Below are positions 852 to 32,800 of a DNA stretch of 64,000 nucleotides, one piece after another. The notes beneath the pieces were generated by a model. That model ran no database searches and had not been told where the DNA came from. It saw only the letters and a list, made by a program, of their open reading frames with translations. Location of the stretch: assembly GCA_903813345.2 (NCBI GenBank), contig CAIIXF020000001.1:5332001-5396000 (forward strand), given 5' to 3'. This DNA is from Owenia fusiformis. Lineage: Eukaryota. The stretch's first letter is position 1. Each line of letters starts with the position of its first letter. Both the position numbers and the translations under genes were made by a program.

Positions 852-1944
852 AACTAGATAACAGCAACGTCAAAGCGTAGCAAAACCCATCGAACAGCCA
901 TGGCTGGCATTTTTCAGAAATCATTGTACTACTTTTTCAGTTATAGCAAAGATCATAAAAAAAGTTTTTATTAAATATGGCCACCATTTTCAAAATGGTT
1001 GCTCACTAGCCAAATTGTCATAAGAAAGTGTAATATGCTTCTAAAAAGTAGACAAATATATAATTTCAAAAAAACCGCACACACATACATGTAAATGGTG
1101 GTCATTTTGCAAAATAGCTGCCTACTAGCCAAAGTGTCGTTAGACAATGTCCCATGCTTATGACCTACCAAATATGAACAAAATGGCTCTATTACTTTTT
1201 GAGTTTTAGTAAAAAAACGTAAAATAACATATGTGAAAATGGCGAGCATTTTCAAAATGGCTGCCTTTCGACAGTATGCCGTGCTTATGATATTCACATA
1301 TCAAACATGAACAAAATCACTATTATTTTTTGAGTTTGACACATGTAAAAGTGGTGGCCATTTTCAAAATGGCCGCGTACTCGCCAGAGTGTGATAAAAC
1401 GGTGTGTGATGCTTATGAGCATTCAAATATCAAATATGAACATGCAAAATTGCTCCACTACTTTTCAAGTTACAGCAAAAAACGTAAAATAATGTGTAAA
1501 GGCCATCATTTTTCAAGATGATTGCCATCTACATTTGTAGCTTTACTAAAGGACGTATATAACTATCAAGAGCTTAGAAAACAATAAAAATGAGTTTTTT
1601 GAAAAATAAATCATCAATTTGATTCATTTTCATTAATTAAATCCAATAAATACGCTTTCTTTCTTTCTTTATACAATCTTTAATATCATATATAACTTTT
1701 TTACATTTGGCAGTAAAATGGCCACCATTTTTGAATTAGTTGCCATTTTGAAAATCCCCTTTCGAGAAGAACTTTTACCCCTATAGGACATACATAGCAC
1801 ATTATGAACAAAATCGAGCTGACAGTATCTTAGTTATCGCCCGGATAGACGGGTGGATGGACAGACGGATTGACTTACATATGGATGGCCGGACGGATGG
1901 AAGCATTCCCTATATCCCTCCAAACTTTGTTCGTTGGGATAATA
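852..1944 (+). mobile_element. HINE/pearl-like non-autonomous element
   Basis: AACTAGATAACAGC start, degenerate tandem cores with AAAATGGCC, (GGAC/GGAT)n microsatellite, 3' hairpin then GGGATAATAA. Confidence 0.7.
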
Positions 1945-2598
1945 AAGAATGGAAAATGAAGACTGTTAAACATAACTAGGAAACATACTGTATAATAATG
2001 GAGCTATCTGTTACATACATCACAACAATGGAAAGGACAATTTGCCCAAAATGCAGAATTTTAAATTCCTACTAATATATAATAATTAAGACCTTTTGTC
2101 CCAACACGATTAAAACAATAGTTTGTTTTCATCAAAGATTGCAACTTATTCTGAGGCCCATATATAATCCTTTTTAGTGAGATTTACTGGCTTTTTTATT
2201 TTACTTTAAATTCCATGTAAAAATTAGAAAGTATTCTGGAAGGCAAAAGCAAGATGAGGAAAATAATTTGATCAGAGATGATTTAGATGACTGCTAAACA
2301 ATAGTTCATTTGTAAGGGCCTTTCCCAATGATCAAAGAAAGAAATCAACAATATATGATTTGGCTTATAGACAACTAATAATTATTTTACACCAATTAGA
2401 TATACCCGTAAATTATACTCTTATACATGAATGTTAATCAAATATCTACAAATGTAATATCTACAAAATGTATTTCATAATGTTTCATAATTACAAAAAA
2501 AATATATAAAATTTGAACTTAAAATACCAGAATGAAGTAAAACATCAAAAGATATTTTATGTACTTTCAAAAGTATAATCAGTACAAAATTTACTTAC

Positions 2599-2870
2599 AA
2601 TTCCAGAGTGGAGCAGTTTTCCAGTGATGATTGTTATGAGTAAAACAGTTCATACTAGGAGCATTACAATCTCTCGTAGGATCTTTCTTTTTATTTTTTC
2701 GACGTTCACGCTTTCTTGCCTCTCGCAATCTTTGTCTCTCCATCTTGAGGCGCTGTCGTTTTGAGCGTCTCTGCTGTCTTCTGCCATCAAACGGACTCAT
2801 CTCTATAGTATCCACATAGTCACTGGAATATTCATCCGAAAAAGCTGTCCCTTTATCTCCTCCAGTAAAT
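2599..2870 (-). CDS. Sulf1: Sulf coding exon 14 (end of hydrophilic domain, C-terminal block)
   Basis: [29 protein letters not shown]...[23 protein letters not shown]; gcag| and |GTAAGT. Confidence 0.95.
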
Positions 2871-5800
2871 CTGCAAACACAACAATAACAATGAGGGAGA
2901 CCATGTGCCAATGGCAAACTAAGACAAGGCAAATGACATGAACGAAATCACACCATCAAAAAACTTTCAAAATGGCCACCAGAATAAAATGGCTGCCCAG
3001 AAGTCAGCTCTAGAACTTGATAACCTCTATCATGTGTGCAAATTTGGAGACAATTCGACAAGCGGTTTTCCTGAAATGCCGATGACAAGATTTATAGGAA
3101 AACCTTCAAAATGGCCACCAGAAAACAAGATGGTCACCCAAAAGTTATCCTCTATTATGTGTGCGAATCTGGAGAAAATTCGATGAGCGGTTTTCCTGAA
3201 ATGATGACAAGATTTTCCGAAAAATATTCAAAAAATGGCCACAAAAACAACATGGTCGCCCAAAAGTTAATCAGCTCTAGAACTTGATATCCTCTATCAT
3301 GTGTGCGAATTTGGAGAAAATCTGATGAGTGGTTTTCCTGAAATGGCGATGACAAGATTTTCCGAAAAGTATTCAAAATGGCCACAAAAAAACAAGATGG
3401 CCGCCCAAAAGTTAATCAGGTCTAGAACTTGATATCCTCTATCATGTGTGCAAATTTGGTTTTCCTGAAATGGCGATGACAAAAAAGCGGGACGATCGCG
3501 ATCACAATCACGATAACGATCATGACCACAACTATGACGACTATATCCCACCGATGGTGTGATAAAAAACACAAACCACAGCCTAGTAGATCTTCCTGAG
3601 CTTTGACAAAATATTGCTATCTTACTAATAAAAATCATTGTTATAAATGGGTCTGAATCCCCAAGCATTTAAATATACAATTCCAACAAAAAATCACTAA
3701 TGTGACAACAGTAGAATAATAACTAGTAGTTTGGGTGTTTAGCCAATAAATCTACATCCAAAAATCATAATTAATTATGATTTTGACTTAACCTCCACCT
3801 TTCTTCTCAAAATGAAATCTTTGCTGTTGATTTGTGCAGATGTAACTAATTGCACTAGATGGCAAGAGTATACTTATCAACATAAGGTCTATGAATACAA
3901 GAAATGGATGCAGACATTAAGCCTTCCCCTAAATGAGTTAAAAACATCAAGCCTGTTATAGAACATATTTAATTAGAATAACTATTCTAGTTTAATACAT
4001 GTATTCATTTTTGATTTGGTGAGGCCAAAAGGGCATCAACTGACCATAGTCCTGCTGTCTAATGCAAGGAGGCTCGCTAACATTTATCACCCTCATTTAA
4101 TTAAGAACCTCACTAAACTAAGAAAGTTAAATGTCTAGTAAATCCAATGCATTAATAAGTAACAGGCATGAACAATAAGATATTCACATGAAACTCAGAA
4201 AGCTAGGCCTAAAATAAATGAAACTGATCATATCAAATCAACTAGACCTAAAAAGGAAATATTGAAAATATCAATTGAGAACTAGACCTATAATAAAGAA
4301 AACAGAAATTAAAGTGGGTCATTGATAACGATCTAATTCTGAGGATCATATACTCTCTGAGAGACATCATATTTTGGAGAACTATAATATTTTTCACAAG
4401 CAAATATTCCACATAAAATTCTTCTATCCGGACAATGAAAACTATATTTTTTTAACCAAACTTTGTTTCAAAATGCAAAATGCAACAGTGACTAGTCACA
4501 GGTTATGTTTTAGGACCATTTAGGCAAATTTTCTCTGAAAAATGTCAAGCTATATTTAATGGTCCATGCCTTCGTACAATTTTTCTTTATGGATATTAGA
4601 AAGATGCTACCGACATTTCTCAAATGATATTCTGTAGAAAAATGTGTTAGCCTCTACACAAGAGAGACTTCTCATCTATCTTCGGTTTTGTTAACATTGT
4701 CATTATGCTCCACATTATTTCTACATTGTGTCCTGGGTGGTCCAAAAAGCTAGTTGAACAAACTTTCCAACTAGGGACAAGTATGGATTCATATACCAAA
4801 TATGGTTTAAATGCAAAGTGAAAGCACATCTATGAAGCAATTAGTTTGGGCCATATATCCAGCGAATACAGAAAGCATATTTCAGGTTACAAACCATGGA
4901 TCCATTGCTTAGCATGAGGCATATAGGTAGGAACAATATGTATAAATATATAATAAAACCTGTTAGTTGAGTGCTTTTGGTATTTCGAAATAGTGTTCAA
5001 CTTGATTGGTGTTCCAGTTCCTCTTTTAGAGGTAACAAGACAGGTTTTACAGTAGAGTATTGGCAAATGAAATAAACCAAAATAATGTCAGAGATAATGA
5101 TATGAATCCTATGTAATAATGATGATTATATGCCTACTGTTGTGAGTACATATAAAGCATACAAGAATCCAGCAGAACATACTGCAAAAGCCAGTCTACA
5201 ACCAAACATAAGCTAAAATGATGAGATATGGGGCATCAAAGCACATATATAATGGAGTTATACCTCGCAGCTGGTGGGAATATATAATTCTCATGATATC
5301 GTCGATATCTGCGGTGTCGCCATTTTCTTGCCCTTCGATTAGCTCCATGATTTGAGATGAGGCCAAGGAAAGATGCCCTATGTAAGTAACATTGAAGAGA
5401 TTTGGTCAATGTCATAAAATGTAAGAATACAAAGTTCTACTCTCCCCACTGTTTTTATTTTTTTATAGCCAATGGCACAAAAACTAATAAATACACATTG
5501 AATTAAGTATAATTTATTTACAAATTGTACCATTAGATTAAAATGACCTAGGATATGGAAAAAATTAGAAAACATCATAAGTCCATGGCATGGCAAGTGA
5601 TTTTGGACAGTCATCTTTCACTTTCTGGGTATAAATTTTGACAACACGGGGAATTAGAAGAGACTGTGGTTGAATTCAGTGAGATAACTACAGCCCATGG
5701 ATGTGGACAAATAACAAAGACAAAGTACAAAACAATAAAACTTGTTTGGAGCTGTAATTTTTACTACACACAGCACAGTGACAATGTCTGTCAGGTACTT

Positions 5801-17800: not shown

Positions 17801-20800
17801 TATTTTCCAAAGTATCCTGGAAATAAATAAAAAATATATTTATGCTCATTCATATACATCTCCATGTATTTACAAAAATTTAACAAAAACACAAAAGTGT
17901 AAAACATACTATATACTGCAAATTTTCCTCCTGAATGCCAAACACTAATCAGTTGAAAAGACATGATTTTTAGACAAAAATCCAATGTGGCCACCATAAA
18001 ATTTACCCAGACTGCAAAAACTAAGTAGTTTGAGATTTTCATAACATGAATCATTCCTGAAAATTTGATATCTATCTGTCCACTGGTTTGCCAGGAAACA
18101 TGTAGACAAGACTTTACAGAGAATGACGAAAAACTACAAGCATTTCCAGATTTTACTAAGAATCATCCCTGAAATTTGAAATTGATTCCTAAAATGGTTA
18201 ACATAAAAATGCGTAGACAAGACTTTACAGACAAGATTTTAGGACGAAAAATCCAAAATGGCTGCCTTAAAATTTACCCATAATGCCGAAAAACTAGTCA
18301 GTTCTAGACTTTCATATTAAGAATAAATTATTAAAAAAAATTTGAAATCGATTCATCAAATAGCTATCCTGAGAATAAGTAGACTTTTACAGACAAGATT
18401 TTAGAACGGAAAATTCAAAATGGCTAGCTTAAAATCTACCCAGAATGCTGAAAAACTGTTCAGTTCTACATTTTCATACTAAGAATCATCCCTGAAAATT
18501 TGAAATTGATCCCTCAAATGGTTAACCTGAAAACACTTAAACTAGACTATACAGACAAGATTTTAGGACGGAAAATCCAAAATGGCTGTCCTAGATTTTC
18601 ATGAACATCCCTGAAAATTTGAACTGAAAATGTGTAGACAAGTGTTTATAGAGAAGATTTTGGGATGAAAAAATCCAAAATACCTGCAATAAAAAATCAG
18701 ATAGGAGTTTTTGCCGATTTCTTTTTACAAAATTATTGCATAAAACTACTTTTAACAGTGACATGAGCTTTTTTTTATACAGGATACATAATAAATAAAA
18801 CATAAAGCATACATAGTTCATGCAATATATCAGATGTATCTAATTCATCAAGTTGATGAATTAAATATGGGTGATATGGATTTGCACAGGGTTGGTATGA
18901 CTGATGCTTGGTGGTTTGTGGAGCCTCAACTCACATTTATCCTTCAAGTTGATGATAGTGGAATTTTTAAAGCATAGCTCATTCCCAGCAGTGGTATTGC
19001 ATTAAGAACTTGTTCCCACTCTCATTTCTTAATCAAATAAAGAGAAAGGAGGGTCAGGACACTGGGTCTTAATACATGACTAACCGATAGGGTAAACCTT
19101 TAGTTATCCATATTTAGTACCAAGAATGTCACTTTACAATCTATAGACTGATTTTTATCATTTTTTCACTTATCATTGAATCTGACCAGGCAGTGAAAAG
19201 TAAATAAGATAAATTGATTTAGGAAAATAGTAAGGATGTCAAAGCAAGGAAGTATCTCTTAACAACCCTTAGACTTGTTATGATCTAGTGCAAATAAATC
19301 ATTAATAATTACAATTACCGGTTGGTGACTATTACTACTAAAATCAACATATCACAAAATCAAAATCTTTCATCACACAATCCCTACTATCTCTCAATAC
19401 AAAAAATTTGATGTGGCTTTCAAAAAGTCAAAACATTAAACCTTGTTTCCATACTTGAATCTATATAGCTAATTAATGGTTCCCTAAATGACCCAGTCAA
19501 GATATTCAGATTCATCAAATATATTCATGAAAACCACAGATTCTGAGAAGGAAGAATTAAAGATAATAAATATTTTTGACAAATATTGATGCTCTGAGGC
19601 CACTTCCTCTGGTGTGATCAATAATAAATGTACTTGATATAAACCAATGAATAGCTAACAGAGTAAACTGTATTCTCTCTAATATAAGGGGTGCTATAAA
19701 GGATGGACATAGATTTCATTCAGGGTTTCTTCGAAATCTTTGGGCTCTAAATAAAATGTGGAATGGAGCAATTATGACAAACATCAGAAAAAATATAATA
19801 TTGTTATCCAGAGAACTTAAAGGACTTGTCCCCTTGATTTTTTTCATGAGACTTACAAAATCTTATCACGCGGTAGGATCTCTTCGGGACGTATCGAAAC
19901 CACTCCGTCCCGAAAAACCGTTAATTTGAATTTAAAACCTACCCCAGTGTTTGAAAATCAAGGATTGTGAGTCTCACACTTCACCGTTTTTCTTCAAACT
20001 TGTTCCGTACAAAGCTTCACAGAAATACCTTTCAGTCGATACATTGTTTTCGTGTACAAAGTACCTCGTTTTAGCGGCGTTTTGGTCCCCAGCTGTGAGA
20101 TAAAGCAAATTTTCATAACTTTCAACTGTAAGTCAAGTTATCTCGCCAGTCTTTTACCCATTCTCGCCCATAATTTCAGAATGGACTCCCATTACAACCT
20201 TCCATCGCTACGTCTTGATTTTTGGGCATCAAACGCAGCAGTTTCTAAATCATCCACACATCTCTTCAAATTTGACCAATACGCCCCGTCATCTTCCACT
20301 ACGCCCCGCCGAGTCTATCACTATACACGTAGAGTTTCATTCTAAAACAATTTGTCCATCGATGTGTCCGTTTGTAGGTTGCCATTGTCGATTCTAAATA
20401 CCAATCGGATTGTGTTTTAAGATTTACCCATTCTTGTCCATTTTCAATATACCTATAATAGGGTGGTCCAAAATCTCCCTAAAATTTAGATTTCCCGATA
20501 TTGCAATATAAAGATTTTAATTACTGAACAATTGAAAATATTTTTAAGAAACGTTTAAAGTGCCCTATCCTTGAAAAAATGTGAAAATGCGAAAGGATGG
20601 GTGATGTCAATTATATTATTTTCAGCATAACGTTAGAAACATGTATCATTTTATATGTTTCACGTTTCATAATGTAATCCAATGGAATCATACAGAAGAA
20701 AGGTTGACACACAACAGTAAAAATCTTTCAATTCAATTTTCAATTCAATTTATTATTCAATTCTAGTTTTCATACAATATTAATTTACAAGTGATATGAA

Positions 20801-23800
20801 AAGGACACCCCGAGGGGTGTATGGATTCCATGTTTTGAAAAAATAAAATGTGTTATACATAAAGCATGTCATGTTAGAACAGTTATTGTAATGTACAAAT
20901 TTACAAAGCATACATTTTTAATTATCTTGATGTAACATAGTGGAAGTATGGTTCAAACTAACTAATAATGACTTAACAAATTGGACTTAAACTTTCGTTG
21001 AAACATTTTTATATGAATTGAGTTTCTCAAATCAGTAGATAAAGAGTTATAAATTGATGGGCCACTTGTCCCAATTGATTTCCTTCCATATTCTGTTCTA
21101 AATGGTTGAACAATCAAATCATTTTTTGATTTTGTGTCATGTGAGTGAATTGTTGATCTTAATGAGAAAAGACGGTTGAATTTTTTAAAAGGGAAATCAG
21201 GCGATTCAGAAAGTGTTTTTTGTACAAAGCTAGCTGTTTGATGGGAATGTATATCAAATACATTTAAAAATTTTAGCTTCTGAAATAGTGGACCTGAAGC
21301 GGCAAAGCTATCAGAATACGTAATGACTCTTAAGAATTTCTTTTGCAAAATATATAATTTCTGAATGAGTGTTTTTATGGCATTTCCCCATAAGATATTT
21401 CCATAGCTTAAGTAAGAATAAATCATTGAATAATAAATTGTAGTCATGGCATTCAAGCTCAGTCGATGTCTAGTCCTGTATACTATACCAATCAAATTAG
21501 AGATTTTTGTACATATAGCATTAATGTGAGGAGACCAGTGTAACTTTGAATCAATGATAACACCAAGGAAATTAATTTCTTTCACCTCTTCAATTGGTTG
21601 ATTGTCAATCTTAAGGATAATATTCTTGTCGTTCAGATCTCTTTTATTGCTAAATATCATAAACTTGGTTTTTTCAACATTAAGAGTTAGTTTATTTGCC
21701 TTCATCCAATTTGAGACATTTTGTAATTCCTCATTCATTTCAATGACTAGATTTTCAATATTTTTGTCAGTAAGCGCAATATTTGTGTCGTCAGCATATA
21801 AAACAAAGGATAGTTTATTTGAGACGAGATATATGTCATTAATGAATATTATAAATAAGAGGGGGCCTATTACCGACCCTTGTGGTACTCCATATTCAAC
21901 TGTATTTTCAATTGATCTATATTTCACATCAGTCTCTGTAAATTGGTCAAGTGAAACATTCTTCTTTGTAAATTCAGTGATGATTCTTCTATTTTCAAGG
22001 ATAACTTGTGAACCAAGAAAGAGCTACTCCACGAATGCCATAGAATTCAAGTTTTTGTAATAATATTTTATGATCAACGGTGTCAAAGGCTTTAGTTAAA
22101 TCAATATAAATACCAAGACTAGTTTTCCCTGTATCTAAAGACTTTCTAATATTTTCAATGAAATTTAAAAGGGCCATGTATGTTGAATGTTTTTTCCTAA
22201 AGCCATATTGGTGTAAGTATAAAATTTCATATTTTTCAAGAAATACGGTAACCTTATCATGAACAATTTTTTCCAACATTTTAGAAAATACACTTAAGAT
22301 AGAAATGGGTCTGTAGTTATTAAAAATTTCTTTTAAACCTTTTTTAAATATAGGAATGACTCTAGCAATTTTCAATGCATCAGGAAATGTTCCAGTAGAG
22401 ATTGACAGGTTAAAGATCTGTGTAAGTGGGGCTGATAAAGATTCTTTTAGTAATTTGACAACTGAGGGCTTAATATCGTCTATTGAAGCAGCAGAAGGTT
22501 TCAAAGATTTAAGTTGATTCTTAACATCAGTTTCTGTTACAGGAAATAAAAAGAGTGATTTATCATTTGAATTAATTTTTCTTAAATTTACCATTGGATC
22601 AGCATTGCTTTGAATCTTATTTGCAAGTTTATTGCCAATAGAGCTAAAGAAATTATTAAAGTTTTCAGCTATTTCAGCGCCATCTGTAGTTTGTCGATTA
22701 TTAAGGTTAAATGTATTATTTATTTTTGATTGACCAGACTTTTTCTTTAAGATGGTGTTAATTAAATTCCAGGATTTTTTTATGTTGCCTTTATTTGCTT
22801 CAAATTTATTTTTGAAATAAGCTTTTTCAGCATTTCGAATTACATGAGTTAATTTATTTTTATACCTTTTATACATGGCTTTGTTTTCCAGTGTTGGATT
22901 TTTTTTGTATTTAATATAAAGCTTATTTTTGTATCTAGCTGATATAATAATTCCAAGAGTAATGCAGGGTTTTTCATTATCATTGAAAGTGCTGACTATT
23001 TTTGATTTTACTGGTAGACACCTATTATAAGTTTCAGAAAACGTTTCAATAAAAGAATTATAAGCATTATTTACACACTGAGATTGATAAATAGCATGCC
23101 AATTAATCTTTGAGATCTCTGATTGGAGTCTTGTACATGTTTCATCATTAATTAGTCTGTATTGGATCTTTAGTTTTTTAACTTTGGGCTTCTCATGATT
23201 ATTAACAGCATAAATGGGAAAATGATCTGAAATATCATACAAAATGATACCAGATTGAGCAACATTATGAGCATTGGTAAAGATGTTATCAATTAAAGTA
23301 GCACAGTTTCTGGTTATTCTTGAGGGCCTATAAATCAACGGCATATAATTGTTTGTGTATAAATTACACAAGAAATCATTTGTTTGATCATGGTCATTTG
23401 CTTTAAAAAGATCGACATTAAAATCGCCAAGGATATATGAAATTTTGTTCTCAGAAGCCACTTTTTCTAAGAATACAATAATATTTTTTCCTTCATCTTG
23501 TTTTATTTCAATGGACACTGATTCAGATTTATCAGAATTAAGTTTGAGATCTGACCTTTCCTCAAATTTGTACTGTTTTGCAATATGTAGGCAAACTCCC
23601 CCACCTCTAGACTGTTTTCTCGAATTAAATACAGTATTATATCCATTTAGTGAAAAAAGCCTCTCATTGTGTTGAGTTAACCATGTTTCAGACATGGCTA
23701 TCACAGAGAAGGAATTTTTACTCAAAGAGTTTAGCATTTCAAATTTCCAATTGTTTTTTGGTAAGCTTCTCATATTCATGTGGAGTAGTGAAAATGAATC

Positions 23801-26800
23801 ACATTTTATTGTTGAATTTAATGTATCAATATTCACATAATTACACTCTTTAGCGATGTTATGCATATCTGTTTGTACGTTGTCAATGTGATCTTCATTT
23901 GCAATGTGTTTGTCAAAATCAAGTGGATTGAAAAGTAAATTATCAAAAAAGTCAAGTCCATGTGTTATGTCCATAAATTCAACATTTGAACACTCATGAA
24001 ATGGAAGATCTTTTAGAGAATTAGCCATTGTCAAGTTCAAATGGTAAAATTTGTTGAAAAGCCATTTTTTCCTTTGAAATGCTTAATAAAATACTTCCAG
24101 CCACGAAACACAATGCTTTGATTGTCATCAATATTGTAACGGATTCTAAATTCATTTCAGAAATAGAAAGTAACAAATAAAAATAAAAATAAAAGGGTGC
24201 AAGTGATTTGCTTGCAAACATATATACAAGATGTAACACTATTTGGAGCATCTCTTACTCAAATGCTACAGATATAAGGATAAGCATGTAGTACTGTGTA
24301 GTTGTGAGAGATCATAAGTAAATGCATATACAGAAATATGTATGGAGGAAAGAAGACAAAAAATATATTCCATTATATTATATATATAATATTATTCCAT
24401 GGAATAATCCATGAAATGATATTCAAGACTCAAAGTGCAACTTATTTGCAAGGGCAATCCAGTTAACCTTGATGCTTGGACTGAGAAAATGGTATAAAAT
24501 AATGTGAAAACCCATTTGTAAGGGCAGTCGAGTGTAATCAAATTCATTATCAAATACAAAAAACTTACATCACAACACAATATTTTGTCATAAAAAGCAT
24601 AAAAGCTCAAATTGCAAGGGCAATCCAGTCTCACCAGTCAAGCAATTATTATAAGAAAATTATATATCGGGATGACTGGAACTATGGACCGAAGTTCAAA
24701 GAGAAATAAAATGGAATTAAATGTTAGTAACCCCCCCCCCCCCCTTCCCGTTTACATAGAGAAAATGAGCAGTAAAACAAATTCAATATGCATGAACAAA
24801 ATGCAGGTTCTTCAAGCTTTTGATTGCAAGGGGGAAATAGTTAAATAATCCTGTTGTGAAAGATTGTTTTCAAGTAAAGTTTGTAAGTGGTATAATATAA
24901 AAGTTTTGGAGAGGTTCCAATTTTTTCCCTTGCAGTAAAAACCTTAAAGAAGTTTCGATATATGCAAACCTCACTGTTTAAAGAAAAATATATAAATTAC
25001 TGTTTAATCACACCTGGATGAAATAGATTGTTTGCAGTTTCAATTATTCCACAAGAACACAAATGTGTACAAAATGTCCCCACCAAGTGGCGATCCCGTG
25101 AAATGGTTATCCTGAAAATGAGTAGACAAGACTTTACCAACACAATTTGAGGACGGAAAATCCAAAGTGGCCACCTTAAAATTTACCCAGAATGCCAAAA
25201 ATTTAGTCAGTTCTAGATTTGCATACTAAGAACCACCCCTGAAAATTTGAAATTGATCCGTCACACAGTTAACCAGAAAACATGTAAACAAGACTTTACA
25301 GACAAGATTTCAGGATGGAAAATCCAAAATGGCTGCCTTGACATTTACCCAGAATGTCAAAAAACTAATCTGTTTGTAGATTTTCATACTAAGAATCATC
25401 CCTGAAAATATGAAATTGATCTACCAAACGGTTCACCTGAAAACGGGTAGACAAGACTTTACAGACAAGATTTTAGGACAGAAAATCCAAAATGGCTGCC
25501 TTAACATTTACGCAGAATGCAAAAAAAGTAATCAGGTGTAGATTTTCATACAAAGAATCATCCCTGAAAATTTGAAATTGATCTATCAAACCGTTCTCCT
25601 AAAAACGTGTAGACAAGACTTTACAGGCAAGATTTTAAGATGGAAAATCCAAAATGGCTGCCTTGACATTTACCCAGAATGCAAAAAAACTAATCAGTTC
25701 TAGATTTTCATACTAAGAATCATTCCTGAAAATTTGAAATTGATCTACGAAACGGTTCACCTGAAAACGAGTAGACAAGACTTTACAGACAAGATTTTAG
25801 GACGGAAAATCCAAAATGGCTGCCTTGACATTTACCCAGAATGCCAAAAAACTATTGAGATCTAGATTTTTATACTAAGAATCATCCCTGAAAATTTGAA
25901 ATTGATCCATCAAACGGTTCACCTGAAAACGCGCAGACAAGACTTCACAGACAAGATTTTAGGACCGAAAAATCCAAAATGGCCGACAATAAAAAAGTTC
26001 TTATGAGTTTTTGCTGATTTCTTTTTACAAAATTATCACATATAACTACTGTTAACAATAAAGTAGGCTTTTACAGCAAAGTACATCTGAAATTATTTAT
26101 AAAGCTACTAAATAGTTAAAGTATGAAAACTCAAAAACACCATTCAATATGATACAAAGTATTATCGCGCGCTAACTTTTCTTAAGACATTCAAAATGGC
26201 TGACATGACTGAGCTAGCAGGTCCAAAACCTAATCAGATCTAGAATGAAGTGAGCTGAACAAGATGTTAAAGTTTTAAAAGCAACTGTGAAGCAGTTTTT
26301 CTTAAAGTTTGCAGACAAGGATTTCAGCATTTGACTTCAAAATGGCCGACAGGAAGTAGGTATCGAGTTAATTTTTTTTCATCCACATCTGTATGCACTC
26401 ATAAGTTATCCCTGAAAATTTGAGGGTGATATCTGTAGCGGTTTTGGAGAAAACTGCCGGACGTACGGACAGACAGACGGACAGACAGACGGACAGACAG
26501 ACGCGCCTAGGCCGACAATATGGCCCCACACTATGTGGTGGGGACATAATAAACTGTAAAAGTGGTCATAGAGTATTTACAGTTAAGGTTCATTTGTTAC
26601 AGATTGGAGGATTAAGATGGCTATGTATCTCCTATTTTGTCTTTGATAAGTTTGGAGACGAGCTTCCACTTTTCGGGATCATATCGGTCATTGTCCCATC
26701 GAGATATTATGATCATTGTGTCAGAAAGATTCAGTTCGACGATTGTATTCCTAATAGTGCGTCCCATGCCAGAGTCTCCATCATCCTGAAAGTCATAGTA

Positions 26801-29800
26801 TTTCCTGGCTCCATTTTGGATAACAAATGCGAAGCTGTTATTTGTAGCTTTGGCAACATAAGGATCGGAGCATGTTTTAAGGAGTGCAGGTTTCACGTCA
26901 GTAAGCGTTTTCACTTTCGCCAGATGTACTTGATACGATCCTCCAGTGCCTGATATCACTGGGCCATTTTTAAGATTGATATCGAGTGCGTCCTGAACTG
27001 TGTCTGAGTTAGATATGGGAGTTTTAAGGGGATATACCAATCTCCCATTCACCGTCATTTTTTCCTTAGAGATGTTACATCTTACATTATCAGACCAAGT
27101 CAGTAGATGTTTATATACCAATTAGTGTTGTATGATGATGCAATCTTTATATGAATCTAGAAACGTTTTTGTGCCAATATTGCTCAATTTTGATAACATC
27201 TCCGTTATTTTGAAATCAAGCGTGGCAAAGTTTCCCGATGGATTTAGCTAAAAAAAAGTGGTGCCTGTAGGGTTATTGAAAATCATACATGATGAAGAAA
27301 AAATACATATTCCTGAAATACAACAGTTTAATTTTGAGTTATAAACCATTTATGAAAACGGCATATTTGTCAAAATTACCAAAAGTTCAAGTGAGACGCG
27401 TGGCAAAATTTCCCAGGGGTCTAGAGTGGAAATATTTGTACCAAGAGTCAATTTGTAACTAGAATCTATCAGATGGCAGAATTTTGGAAAATTTTGCAGA
27501 TTTGGACAACACTAACCTATAACTTTGTTGAACCTGAAGAAACGTATCAACTTTTTGTTAAATAAAGATAGCAAATTCAGCTGTCTACTGTACCTAACTT
27601 GTACTTTTTGCTAGTACTCAGATTGATGGATATTCTGTCGTATGACATGCGACAAACACCGGTGTAAAAGCGTAGGTGGTCCTATCAAATTATGGTCCTA
27701 GTCTCTATTGATTTATATGGTGACCTGATTACAATTATTTTCCTTCTTATTTATACACAATCAGGGCCAGAAAGGGCCGTTGGGAAAGGGGACCATAATC
27801 CCCAGGGGACCATAATTTCTTTCACACCGGCTTTGTTAGTACTTTGCCTTGGATGTCATACAGTACATTTACACTGTGGCATGATGATGAACTTAGAAAA
27901 TATGTATAGTCATGACAAAATGTTCTTTGTGATATAATATTGTATAGTATCATTCTGATACGTATTACATGTTTATGTTTAGTGCATAAAATTCATAGCC
28001 AGATCAATAATTCGGAGAGAATACGCTGGACGATAGAATATTAAAAACTATAAAAACATTCTTCATAGAATTAAGCAAATAGTGTTATTATCATTTAAGT
28101 AGTAACTGCATATGTTTAAAACCACTCTGTTTAAATACAGGTAAATAAATAAATATGAGAGAGCAATAGTCATCACAATAGAAAAAACGGAGCGAAAATA
28201 TTGAAAGATGACCGAGACAATTGAAAAAAAGGACAAAGTACTGGATTTGACCTAGTTCTTGACCTTTGGCCTAGATAAAAATTTGACACCATTTCTTACC
28301 AACTAGATACTGTACCTTAATTGACCATATAATTGTCTTGAATAGATACTTTGTACAGTAGTTGTTGAGAAAACGTGACCAGTAAAAGAACAAGAATAAG
28401 AATAAACAAAAGAGGCAAAAACAAAGATGTTCCCCTTCACCAATGCAATGCAATCATTTTTCACAATGTTTAATGCATTACTTAAGGAATGACCAAACTT
28501 GCTGTTATTTTCGCCATTCCCAGGTGTGATGTCACACAATACATGCATATAGATTCCTTGAAGCAGATTCAATACAGCACGGTCTTGCCTACAGTATATG
28601 GAGAAATAATGAACGTTCATTATTGGATATGCTGCATTCTGATTGGTTTAGAAATTCAAATAGAGCACGGTCATGTTTGAATATTCTTTATTTTGATATC
28701 AATGAGTTATTGAAATGAAAACTGAACTCTCTTAAGATGAGTGTTGACAATGTTATTTCCCCGTTTAGAAAAACAATTGGTTTCAACTCATTTTGGTCAT
28801 CCAAATTCAGTATCTTTTAAGTCACTATATCCACTATATTCAACTTCTAAAATAATCAACGGAACCATTCGGAATACTTTTATAAACATAGTTTGGCCAA
28901 ATGCATAGGTGGGGGACAAAGTGAGTTTTAAAGTATTCACCTCCACATAGCCTTGCCCAAGTCGGTCTCTTTTACTTATTTTGATTTCTATTATTAATAA
29001 TTCAAGATCAGATAAGTAAAAAGATATCGACTTAGGCAAGGCTAACCTCCACAGGGTAATGAGAGTCTCTTGATGTGGAGTTGTAGTGTGGTGGTCTCAT
29101 TAATGGAGACCTTGGCCCCTTCCCTCTGGAGGTCCTTTATTTTCTGTACCGTTATCCCAAAATGGTGGGACCTATACTTAAATCCCCCGACTTCCTCCCT
29201 GAGATATCGTTTATGCACTTTAAGGTCCTGTGTGAGGTACCGTCTCATTTCATGTTCTATATAACACGTTCGATTTGATTATCCCCGGTGTTGCAGTAGT
29301 AGCACTTAAACATATGCGGTATCATAAGATGCCGTTCAAAAAAAGAAATAACACATATACATTTCTTTGATTGATTATCAATAGCTAAACATAACCGTTT
29401 CGGTTACAAGTGTGTTCAAATGCGTGACCGTTGTCGTATTATCATCAATTCGTTTATGTAACCAAAGCGAGGGATTAAATGGGCGTTCCTGTCATCCAAC
29501 AAACTATTTCGATTAAAATCACTTGGTTGTCCAGAAAGATATTTTGCTTATCCATATTTCGGCCGAAAAGATCTGGATGATTCGTGCTGTATCTCGAGAT
29601 ATCAAGGAAAACGAAAATTCTTACCGATTTCTTCAGCCGGAACAGCAGCCATCTTGTTACCAAAACGATTCGTTTTGGTAACCAGCGTAATCGAGCGGAT
29701 CACCAGTGAGTATAGCGTTTTTTCTTTTACATGTTACTTTTTGTACATCATTGATTGATCCGCTCTAATCTGCCCTCGGCCGATAATTTATAAATTATTT

Positions 29801-32800
29801 ATGTTGAACATTAGCAAAACAGGATTCCAGATTATATTGTGTTTCAAACCAGACACTTGGTTTCCTCACAAAATCAAATACAGGACAATAACATATAATT
29901 AAAGTTAAAAAGCAACATCTTCACAAACATTTAAATTATCAATTTCATGCAATCAGTTATAGTTATACTCCGTATGTATGCTAAACTTAAGACTGGTGTT
30001 AAGAATCGACCAAGGCAAACCTATGTAAAATTACACATCGATGAACAAAATGTTTTAGAATACAACTCCACGTTTGTAGTCATAGACTCGGCGGGGCGTA
30101 GTGGAAGGTGACGGGACGTATTAGTCAAATTTTAAGAGATGTGTGGATGATTTAGAAACTGCTGCGTTTGATGCCCAAAAATCAAAACGTAGCGATGGAA
30201 GGTTGTAATGGGAGTCCATTCTGAAATTATGAGCGAGAATGGGTAAAAGACTGGCGAGATAACTTGACTTACAGTTGAAAGTTATGAAAATTTGCTTTAT
30301 CTCGCAGCTGGGGACCAAAACGTCGCTAAAACGAGGTACTTTGTACACGAAAACAATGTATCGACTGAAAGGTATTTCTGTGAAGCTTTGTACGGAACAA
30401 GTTTGAAGAAAAATGGTGAAGTGTGAGACTCACAATCCTTGATTTTCAAACACTGGGTTAGGTTTTAAATTCAAATTAACGGTTTTTCGGGACGGAGTGG
30501 TTTCGATACGTCCCGAAGAGATCCTACCGCGTGCTTATGAAAACAGAAAAATGTAAGGATGCTGTGGAAAGTCTACCTAGGGTACTATAAGCATTGCTTT
30601 GAATTTTATTACTTTGTTTTGTTTCGTTTTCAATAGAAGTCTCCAGCACTAAATTACATCACTGAAAATACTTTAGCAGCAGGATCCTGTGAAAAATTGA
30701 CAATGCATATTATTCTTCTGGAATATTCCAAAGTACAATGTCAAAAATGTTTACTCACTTCTCTCAACCAGATTTCTTGATTACAATTTGCAACTGGGTT
30801 GTTGGTAATTTTTACATTGTGGTTCTGACTGGCATGGCCTTATTTATTACAATTATGATTTCTCCAAAAACTATTTGAAAGGTTATCAGCGATTAGCATA
30901 TTAACTGAGTCAACAGCTCCCATATGATATCTTCATTCAACTAAGACTAGAAGCTGAATTTTGTAAAGCGAAGATGAGATAATCTGTGGAACATGTTCTC
31001 AATCACGTTTGATGATTTAGGCTAATGAAGTGCACACATGGGTGTCTGAAGTACATTGATGGAAAAATTATTCCTATAACAAATGGGATTGAAGTTTAAG
31101 ACTTGAATATCCTCTTCATATACCCATGCTAAGTCATCCAATTGAAAACAAAATTTTAAGATGTGTCCGAATGTTTCAGTAACCCTTTAACAACTAGATA
31201 ACAGCAACACAAAGGCATAGCAAATCCCATGTACAACTAGGAATCATGTCAAAGAATGGCCACTTTAGATTTACTGCAAAAGGATAATGTGCCATTCTTG
31301 CACCATTTACATAGTACTATAAAATATCAACAAAATCATTCCTTTGGAAGTTATCTAGAGAAACTGTGCCATGCTTCAACAAAATTGCTCTTCTCAGTGA
31401 TCTCCCTCGGATTTGTTTTCAGATGGGTGCAAATTTTTTTCGGTTGCTTCACTTACAGTATTAAAAAATTTGAAATAATTTTAGCCACTCGCTTTGCTTG
31501 TGAGATTTCAATCTTACAGATGTATGCCGCTCGTTTCAATAATGATACTTATTTCTTCATAATATTCTCCTCCTAATACTCACATCAAGCTACTTTTTTT
31601 ATCAACTTAGCTGATTTTACTAATTTAATGTAAATTGGAATAGGAGGGGGATGATAACGATAACTGTTAACACAACTAGAAAAACAGCATGGAGTAGCAA
31701 ATCCCACCGAACAAAATATGTTTTGATAAATAGTGGCCATATAAAATTTGAGCAAAATCCATCTACTGGTATTTGAGTTGTCAAAGATTATGTTTTTTTT
31801 TGAAACATGGTGGCCCTTTTAAAATTCAGCTACAATCTTTCTTCTTGAGCAGTGCGCCTATGGCCGTAGGCATCAGCATATAAAATCTAATCCAAATCCG
31901 TCAACTGGTACTTGAATTACATTTTTAATGAAAAATGGCAGAGATATCCAGAAATTTTCTCGAGCAGAGCTCTCTAGGCATCAATATATAAAATCTAAGG
32001 TAAATCCGTCTAGTGGTATTTGAGTTATTGAAGATTACGAAAATGAAAAATGGCAGCCATTTTGAAATTCAACTGACACCTTTGAAATTTCTTCTGAAGA
32101 AGATCTTCTTTGTCCCTAGACATCAGCATATAAAATTGGAACTGAATTCATCCACTGGTATTTGATTTATCAATGATTATATTTTTTAAAAATTCAGTGG
32201 CCATCTTGAAAATGTCTTCTTGAGCAAAACTTCTTTGTCTCTAGGCATCAGCATATAGAATTTGAACCAAATCCGTCAACTGGTATTTGAGTTATCAAAG
32301 ATTACATTCTTTTACGAAAAATGGTGGCCATTTAAAAAAAATTAACTGCCATCTTGAAAATCCCTTCTTGAGCAGAGCTCCTATGTCTCTAGGCATCAGC
32401 ATATAAAATTTGAACCAAATCCGTCTACTGGTATTTGAGTTATCAAAGATTACATTATTTACGAAAAATGGTAGCCATTTTAAATTGAGCGGCCATATTG
32501 AAAATTCATTCTTGAGCAGAGTTCCTACACCCACAAGGCATAAGCCTATAAAATTGAATCAAATTAGTCAACTGGTGTTTGAGTTATTCCCCGGACAGAC
32601 TCACAAATGGACGGACGGATGAACAGACAAACTGACGAACAGACAGACGGAATGACCAAAAACAACCAGTGAAAATCGCCTGTTGCCTGCTGCAAATGAA
32701 ATCCCTACATAAAGAAAATGTTTGTTTTAAGTAAATGTTATTAGTTATGAAGGACCTCCACAATTCCAGAAAATTAACTAGAGAAGGAGTGTTTATATCC

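Follow-up and report, generated by a model that had tools for sequence, protein, structure and literature searches.

The minus-strand open reading frame (ORF) at 26621-27121 of a 64,000-nucleotide stretch of Owenia fusiformis DNA (GenBank assembly GCA_903813345.2, contig CAIIXF020000001.1, positions 5,332,001 to 5,396,000 of the forward strand; hereafter the window, in whose numbering all coordinates are given) is most probably the 3' end of ORF1 of a 5'-truncated long interspersed nuclear element (LINE), which runs on the minus strand from 27078 to 20729. The family to which this LINE belongs would encode an ORF1 protein (ORF1p) composed of a coiled coil, an RNA recognition motif (RRM), a C-terminal domain (CTD) and an IMPACT domain without RWD, followed by a 1.1-kb spacer, a non-L1 ORF2 encoding an endonuclease and reverse transcriptase (EN-RT), and a tandem tail.

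Translation of the minus strand from 27121 to 26624 gives 166 stop-free codons, closed by a TAG stop codon at 26623-26621. The first-pass annotation of the window, made from the letters alone, had listed an order of motifs running through IIISRW, with EKMTVNGRL ahead of them, and had recognized in it the UPF0029 family of IMPACT, Yih1 and YigZ. The motifs are found in that order in the translation, and the family identity is borne out by Pfam: UPF0029 (PF01205) matches with 31.8 bits (E 1.5e-7), above its gathering threshold of 27 bits, and frame residues 62-142 (window 26696-26938) align with profile positions 4-84 of 107. By sequence, the best match among solved structures is 6bqi, 'Protein IMPACT homolog' (E 8e-4). 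A profile of ORF1-borne IMPACT domains matches the frame with 73.7 bits (E 8e-22) and has zero other matches among the 1470 six-frame pieces of the window, and tblastn likewise detected no second copy of the domain in the 64 kb (next best E 0.91). On the evidence of PF01205, 6bqi and the profiles, the IMPACT or UPF0029 'ancient' domain, which would form the C-terminal module of ORF1p, comprises residues 57-164 (26630-26953, minus strand).

The sequence ahead of the domain resembles that of ORF1 proteins rather than that of cellular, RWD-bearing ones. The 48-residue stretch preceding the domain was modelled separately from 123 ORF1-type and 95 RWD-type proteins. The N-terminal 58 residues of the window frame score 22.9 bits on the ORF1-type profile, over residues 15-56 (42 amino acids), against 9.4 bits for the best of 2000 shuffles; on the RWD-type profile the same segment scores only 1.7 bits, where the best shuffle reaches 6.8. 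A profile of 31 sequences gives a similar result (23.0 bits; best of 2000 shuffles 9.5). The alignment begins at residue 15, facing the conserved W..DKL.V.G at the end of the CTD. For the domain proper, the ORF1-type IMPACT profile gives 76.7 bits and the RWD-type one 53.7. Among the 1470 six-frame pieces of the window, there is neither an RWD-like piece (best E 3) nor an ORF1 core of coiled coil, RRM and CTD (best E 1.2). Only the tail of the CTD is thus left of the type II ORF1p in the window, and the coiled coil and RRM are missing. This CTD end and its linker (26954-27078, minus strand) form the 5' end of the LINE, with the truncation point at 27078, as both the pre-domain profile and the loose ends of contigs indicate.

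Two details of the frame as first annotated required amendment. It had been described as starting without an ATG; an in-frame ATG does exist (M22, in MTVNGRL), but it falls within the C-terminal region of ORF1 and does not represent a natural start. The extent of the frame stands from 27078 downward, where it is LINE-derived, whereas its first 14 codons (27121-27079, minus strand) belong to the repeat that the LINE interrupted and lie outside the element: contigs that run past 20728 match 27079-27098 at 19 of 20 positions. Within 27079-27121 the frame is open by chance.

Relatives of the frame reveal the architecture from which it derives. A phmmer search of 1.84 billion representative proteins (E<=1e-3) returned 298 matches, the best with E 2.2e-13 and with identities of 21-35%. 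UPF0029 was present in all 149 scanned matches and in the query, and the Pfam RWD domain in 44 of these 150 proteins. When the best 150 of the 298 matches were sorted by local profiles, 58 had an ORF1-like N-terminal part, 45 an RWD domain, and 47 were short or of other kinds. Many of the matches lacking RWD are 360-570 residues long and carry the IMPACT domain at the extreme C-terminus, preceded by a heptad-rich stretch and by a motif of the type RSMRDNLxFxNIPE, which a strict pattern detected in 28 of 151. The IMPACT motifs conserved among the relatives are ATHNxYAYR, DDGExGAG and RWYGG..LG..RF. A profile of 31 long matches finds both halves of the predicted fusion among solved structures: the IMPACT homolog 6bqi (E 8.5e-30) and bacterial TTHA1053 (E 7e-7) on the one hand, and LINE-1 ORF1p (2ykp/2yko, E 2e-5; 2ldy, E 4.8e-5; 2w7a, E 1.4e-4) on the other. 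In the match to 2ykp/2yko, profile positions 106-282 correspond to chain residues 3-178, which span the coiled coil, RRM and CTD. Judged by sequence, type II (L1-type) ORF1 proteins ending in an IMPACT domain therefore form a family.

This family was also recovered elsewhere. A profile search of a collection of 5.8 billion proteins included, among the matches listed, about 55 full-length members with E <1e-94, all of them unnamed or misnamed. In the ESM Atlas, the two clusters nearest to the ORF1 of L002, one of the metagenome loci described below, number 57 and 242 members, of which 96% and 78%, respectively, carry PF01205. All members are eukaryotic, and where a phylum is on record, as it is for only a few of them, Mollusca is the most frequent. 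The Atlas model of L002 ORF1 aligns both with an L1TD1/Transposase_22 cluster (101-324) and with a Protein IMPACT cluster (154-451). The combination of ORF1 and IMPACT seems widespread in molluscs, and ORF1-like relatives without an IMPACT domain occur in oysters and a clam. Among viral contigs of IMG/VR, 18 pattern matches yielded 0 confirmed relatives.

Several proteins met in these searches call for separate mention. P0048, a full-length ORF1-IMPACT protein (511 amino acids, 10 member sequences), bears the source name 'predicted Fe-Mo cluster-binding NifX family protein' and looks mis-annotated. P0002, P0006, P0008 and P0017 are among the best matches to the window domain, and some such proteins carry IMPACT domains in tandem, two or three of them, and lack RWD. 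A protein from the sea anemone Actinia tenebrosa appears to join a DZIP3-like HEPN domain, which was reported for one of the 150 proteins and is assigned to this one indirectly, to two IMPACT domains. Finally, a 53-member Atlas cluster with a NADAR domain in all members aligns structurally with residues 88-422 of L002 ORF1 (TM 0.52/0.57), and its sole phylum record is Annelida; going by these models, the ORF1 scaffold of the ORF1-IMPACT proteins may carry further C-terminal modules.

Linkage to an ORF2 was sought in JGI metagenome contigs, which were scanned with an 11-sequence alignment, the 31-sequence one being too diverse, and which gave 23 loci. The first-pass annotation had proposed that a LINE family fused the IMPACT domain to its ORF1p, and two of these loci agree with it, each having one ORF with coiled coil, RRM, CTD and IMPACT, followed by an EN-RT ORF2. 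In L002, the ORF1-IMPACT protein is encoded by a single frame at 218-1588 and, after a gap of about 330 bp, ORF2 follows at 1917-5252 (1,111 codons, with Exo_endo_phos and RVT_1). In L007, the ORF1-IMPACT frame at 3-1220 is separated by about 690 bp from an EN-RT frame of 1,236 codons at 1908-5618. A third locus, L003, breaks off 76 residues into an L002-like ORF2. The remaining ORF1-bearing loci have under about 800 bp of downstream sequence, in which nothing was found at E 1e-5.

The ORF2 proteins of these elements are not all of one kind. That of L007 matches human L1 ORF2p over endonuclease and reverse transcriptase (E 5.8e-89), and that of L002 over the reverse transcriptase core only (E 3e-22). 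The only Protein Data Bank matches of the window ORF2 are R2 reverse transcriptases (E 1e-8); it is 27% identical to L002 ORF2 over 634 amino acids (E 3e-46) and matches L007 ORF2 far less closely (E 2e-5). By these comparisons the window ORF2 is a non-L1 one, related to that of L002, and the predicted ORF1-IMPACT protein occurs with two ORF2 clades, L1-like and non-L1. At a further locus, L012 (95-1538), an IMPACT fragment 67% identical to a family member abuts a reverse transcriptase 41% identical to the window ORF2. There is no spacer or endonuclease between the two, and L012 is either an internally deleted copy or a chimeric assembly.

The position of the element in the window was examined by aligning contigs of the DNA runs X1 and X12 and raw reads of the RNA runs X22 and X23 to 20450-29950 at 85% likeness. 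About 6 in 100 of each RNA run were read, and none of the runs listed as containing the stretch is recorded as RNA. The left half of a high-copy repeat (20407-20728; summed depth 33,953 in X1) and its right half (27079-27515; depth 22,411 in X1 in 27107-27423) flank the element, with loose contig ends at 20728 on one side and at 27082 and 27516 on the other. Two X12 contigs that end at 20728 run on with 20 letters equal to 27079-27098 at 19 of 20 positions, and in the contigs that start at 27082 (one in X1, two in X12) the preceding letters resemble 20718-20728. Other copies of the repeat thus read directly from 20728 to 27079, and 20729-27078 is absent from them, which identifies it as one insertion of 6,350 bp, or 4,852 bp once a later repeat of 1,498 bp is subtracted. 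No other copy of the interrupted repeat itself was found in the window.

Both ends of the insertion have the features of a LINE. A tandem repeat at 20726-20763 sits at the 20729 boundary, as would the 3' tail of a LINE, and the opposite boundary, at 27078, falls within one codon of the start of the ORF1 profile alignment. With a short tandem tail at one end and a break inside ORF1 at the other, the insertion fits a 5'-truncated LINE. The 3' untranslated region (UTR; 20729-20961, minus strand) ends in this tail, (TTTCAATTCAAT)n on the plus strand at about 20729-20763. A search of Rfam yielded no LINE 3' element, its only match being a snoRNA at chance level (E 0.75), and the 3' UTR folds no better than shuffles (z -1.4).

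Within the insertion, the ORF1 piece and the EN-RT ORF2 lie on the same strand and in the upstream-to-downstream order seen in L002 and L007. The ORF1 stop at 26621 and the earliest ATG of the EN-RT frame, at 24028, are 2,592 bp apart. Of this, the secondary insertion at 25051-26548, which had been called a 'HINE' (Helentron-associated interspersed element) and contains a tandem array at 25111-25983, accounts for 1,498 bp. A joint of 25050 to 26549 that skips it is present in two X1 contigs, one X12 contig and three X22 RNA reads; the X12 contig (record 15; 470 bp, depth 385) covers 26974-26549 and continues for 44 bp past the joint into the distal spacer. This joint shows that the 1,498-bp repeat was inserted later into continuous sequence, and it vindicates the earlier removal of the repeat from the distance between the two frames, which had been put at about 1.1 kb and is 1,094 bp. 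The spacer consists of a short part upstream of the inserted repeat (26549-26620, minus strand), joined to 25050 in contigs and RNA reads, and a main part (24029-25050, minus strand). Diverged contigs cover both of its ends, X12 record 12 bridging the start of ORF2 and the proximal spacer (23910-24489) and others lying over the distal spacer (24720-25039). An 18-nucleotide motif, TTGCAAGGGCAATCCAGT on the plus strand, occurs in the spacer at 24446-24841 in four copies, which are 72-100% alike and irregularly spaced.

ORF2 (20962-24028, minus strand), identified by Pfam and by its match to L002 ORF2, is split in the window between two frames, 21995-24082 and 20962-22023, which carry Exo_endo_phos and RVT_1 and overlap at 21995-22023. 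At position 21999, contigs of both DNA runs are one base shorter than the window, and the frameshift is therefore private to the window copy. The summed depth in X1 falls from 3,176 at the 3' end of ORF2 to 106 in the spacer, as is expected for a family of 5'-truncated copies.

A number of observations weigh against the reading of the frame as the end of ORF1 in one LINE copy with this ORF2. A full-length copy of the window's own LINE family was not seen, and identity to the closest of the 1.84 billion representative proteins is as low as 21-35%; a protein search based on words, at near lengths, gave no relative. Transposase_22 stays below the Pfam threshold in all 10 ORF1-IMPACT proteins examined, with one weak match (E 0.097) when E values up to 5 are admitted. 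Over the IMPACT frame, the RNA cover amounts to about 1 read. An alignment of 150 sequences has 13 columns with conservation of at least 90%, and the window domain agrees with eight of these; three of the changes are conservative (F63Y, E116D, R151K) and two are outright (H94N, G148D), so that the domain of the window's lineage may be degenerate or relaxed. At position 26688, all three contigs of each DNA run have C instead of T, which makes residue 145 a glycine, the family consensus, where the window has an aspartate. Language-model features place short, mostly bacterial YigZ-like clusters of the ESM Atlas nearest to the window domain (score 0.90). The spacer, at 1,094 bp, is longer than those of L002 and L007, and its depth (69-154) is exceeded both by that of ORF2 and by that of the IMPACT frame (at 26688, 507 and 718).

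The domain trees add to these points. A first domain tree of 158 rows was not resolved. In a tree of 67 rows, the ORF1-type (40) and RWD-type (26) domains are separated by one branch (SH-aLRT 97), but the window copy is a long branch (3.5) near the centre and is not placed; imposing a grouping with the RWD-type domains yields a tree that the AU test does not reject (p-AU 0.785) and that scores 12.7 log-likelihood units above the quick free tree. The assignment of the frame to ORF1 is therefore based on the pre-domain homology and the profile scores, and not on the tree.

The dip in depth and the length of the spacer raise the question as to whether two elements meet here, the IMPACT-bearing ORF1 tail having come from another LINE family than ORF2 and having been joined to it at insertion, either by a switch of the reverse transcriptase to a second RNA template or by a second insertion exactly at the 5' end of the earlier one. 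The unusually long spacer, with its four 18-nucleotide motifs, might represent a 5' UTR, that of a LINE with a single ORF, and the occurrence of ORF1-IMPACT with two ORF2 clades implies that modules move between lineages. The lower depth of the spacer relative to both sides is not of itself predicted by one family of 5'-truncated copies and would also follow from a two-element origin; it is attributed here to the faster change of non-coding stretches at the 85% likeness cut-off. Conversely, all of 20729-27078 is missing from other copies of the repeat, for which one event is the simplest account; X12 record 15 joins the IMPACT frame to the distal spacer and record 12 joins ORF2 to the proximal spacer; neither a poly(A) nor any other 3' end follows the ORF1 stop; and L002 has a like order with a related ORF2. 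Taken with these observations, an origin from two elements appears unlikely.

The annotation had also allowed that the frame might be cargo of a DNA transposon, and it does sit between two 543-bp inverted repeats (19867-20406 and 29991-30533), which are 94-96% alike and flanked on both sides by CTTAT. Other copies of the internal repeat, however, go from 20728 to 27079 without it, the segment ahead of the domain is of ORF1 type, and no transposase-like ORF is found among the ORFs listed in the interval. The ORF1 piece, the spacer and ORF2 instead arrived as the one insertion 20729-27078, and the cargo explanation is very improbable. It is scarcely credible that the frame is a processed retrocopy or an exon of a host IMPACT gene: its lack of introns, its membership of the IMPACT family and a domain tree that leaves it room beside the RWD-type domains would allow this, but the pre-domain segment scores for ORF1 and not for an RWD-type linker, the ORF1-type domain profile leads by 23 bits, no RWD-like piece lies in the 64 kb, and a poly(A) after the stop was not found.

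The LINE copy in the window is itself defective. It lacks coiled coil and RRM and its ORF2 is shifted, and it is therefore dead. Reverse transcription would have stopped inside ORF1, so that nothing of ORF1 beyond the IMPACT domain and the tail of the CTD was copied, and the copy would have been dead on arrival. It is nevertheless young, since its 152 LINE-derived ORF1 codons and about 1,020 ORF2 codons are free of stops. The LINE family is alive or recent, as witnessed by these open codons, by the lack of the extra base at 21999 elsewhere, and by the fall in depth from 3' to 5'. Synonymous sites between related elements are saturated and dN/dS is not computable; the proportions of nonsynonymous (pN) and synonymous (pS) differences are given in its place. 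In six pairs of related metagenome elements, the IMPACT domain has pN of 0.15-0.31 against pS of 0.76-0.92, and the pN of the RRM/CTD core, at 0.23-0.37, lies above that of the IMPACT domain. The IMPACT domain is thus clearly constrained, and under purifying selection in the related elements.

The surroundings of the LINE, in a window that is AT-rich (GC 0.29-0.38), hold further repeats. The inverted repeats, whose outer ends start CACGCGGTAGG, enclose about 9.6 kb that comprise the LINE and a mosaic of high-copy repeats; the unit that they bound is possibly a non-autonomous DNA transposon of large size, or a foldback element, that made a 5-bp target duplication. From 27079 to 29990 extends a mosaic of very high-copy repeats with sharp boundaries at 27516, 27830, 28597, 28776, 28948 and 29709 in contigs and reads; there, both strands have an RNA cover of tens or hundreds of reads. 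The element at 25051-26548 within the spacer is interspersed in very high copy number and contains a 162-bp unit repeated 5.4 times. Its summed word depth is about 1e6, and a partial copy lies at 17959-18757; its RNA cover is strongly one-sided (in one bin, a depth of 976 reads against 39), and some contigs from two other DNA runs lack it at this position.

What the IMPACT domain might contribute to an ORF1p can be considered in the light of the L1 protein, which, according to the part of the source available, trimerises via its coiled coil (PMC6428221). By analogy, a trimer of ORF1-IMPACT proteins would display three IMPACT domains on an RNA-binding scaffold. As the fusion lacks RWD, the preferred possibility is that the IMPACT domains dock the nascent LINE ribonucleoprotein to the ribosome or the translation machinery; ORF1p would thereby be more apt to bind its own mRNA during translation. 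Alternatively, or in addition, the domain might blunt the translational stress response mediated by eIF2-alpha kinases. The literature consulted in part describes the function of the ancient domain of IMPACT as unknown and its conserved features as clustered on one face (PMC4503747). A tentative and, on balance, doubtful wider scenario would have LINEs, mainly of molluscs, capture an RWD-less IMPACT domain once and attach it at the C-terminal end of an L1-type ORF1p that forms trimers; this module would then have moved between L1-like and non-L1 (CR1/L2-like) ORF2 lineages, and would have been kept either for ribosome docking, as a basis of cis-preference, or for dampening eIF2-alpha kinases.

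If this were true, the elements would constitute a natural experiment, in many copies, on the biochemical role of a domain whose conservation spans all kingdoms. No part of LINEs is less well understood than their ORF1 proteins, and few accessory domains are on record for them; an ORF1p-IMPACT would add a module from a regulator of the GCN1/GCN2 stress pathway. Because the RWD-less version on an RNA-binding trimer isolates the activity of the ancient domain itself, assays of retrotransposition and of ribosome binding would apply to it. The fusion would also be relevant to how LINEs handle translational stress responses. In mouse, a study seen in part reports that L1 co-opts the PKR factor PRKRA, with higher ORF1p levels and retrotransposition as the outcome (PMC10289378). 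In terms of annotation, ORF1-IMPACT proteins are at present nameless or wrongly named in public sources. While the window copy is an ordinary dead LINE fragment, the interest lies in the family, for the LINE field as well as for the IMPACT/GCN field.

We could not find a published description of a type II ORF1p with an IMPACT accessory domain in a search that covered neither supplementary tables nor Repbase, where an entry is possible. Among the papers searched, none was found to combine 'UPF0029' with 'retrotransposon', or 'ORF1' with both 'non-LTR' and 'IMPACT domain'. Neither 'IMPACT' nor 'UPF0029' appears in the main text of PMC4120745. PMC5203782, apart from its domain table S11, which was not covered and could list this domain, has no 'UPF0029' and has 'impact' once, as an ordinary word in a title of its reference list. 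In the portion of a gastropod non-LTR survey that was available (PMC11203168), 'UPF0029' is absent and 'IMPACT' occurs once.

Cellular IMPACT and Yih1 have the UPF0029 motifs in common with the relatives of the frame, and an IMPACT homolog, 6bqi, is the best solved match. Cellular IMPACT/Yih1 has an RWD domain, which mediates GCN1 binding, whereas the ORF1-IMPACT protein has no RWD, is fused to an RNA-binding ORF1p and is mobile, in many copies; without RWD, there is no reason to expect it to bind GCN1. Bacterial YigZ belongs to the same Pfam family, and it is to short YigZ-like clusters that the window domain comes nearest by Atlas features. Yet the ORF1-type profile favours the eukaryotic IMPACT homolog, and nothing follows the domain before the ORF1 stop, unlike in YigZ, which carries a second domain.

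The type II ORF1p of LINEs, as represented by L1, shares with the relatives of the frame a coiled coil, one RRM and a CTD, in that order and upstream of an EN-RT ORF2. The ORF1-IMPACT protein differs in adding about 110 residues of IMPACT after the CTD and in being too divergent for the Transposase_22 threshold. As far as the sections consulted go, type II ORF1 has been recorded in the L1, CR1, L2 and R1 clades, and ORF1 is described as modular and as moving between LINE clades in a reticulate evolution, with RRM, CCHC, PHD and esterase as the accessory domains named (PMC4120745). Parallels are offered by the esterase (type IV) and PHD (type III) forms of ORF1, in which, in the parts of the sources available, a host-like domain has likewise been added through modular evolution (PMC4120745; PMC3905857); the ORF1-IMPACT protein differs from them in the domain that was added.

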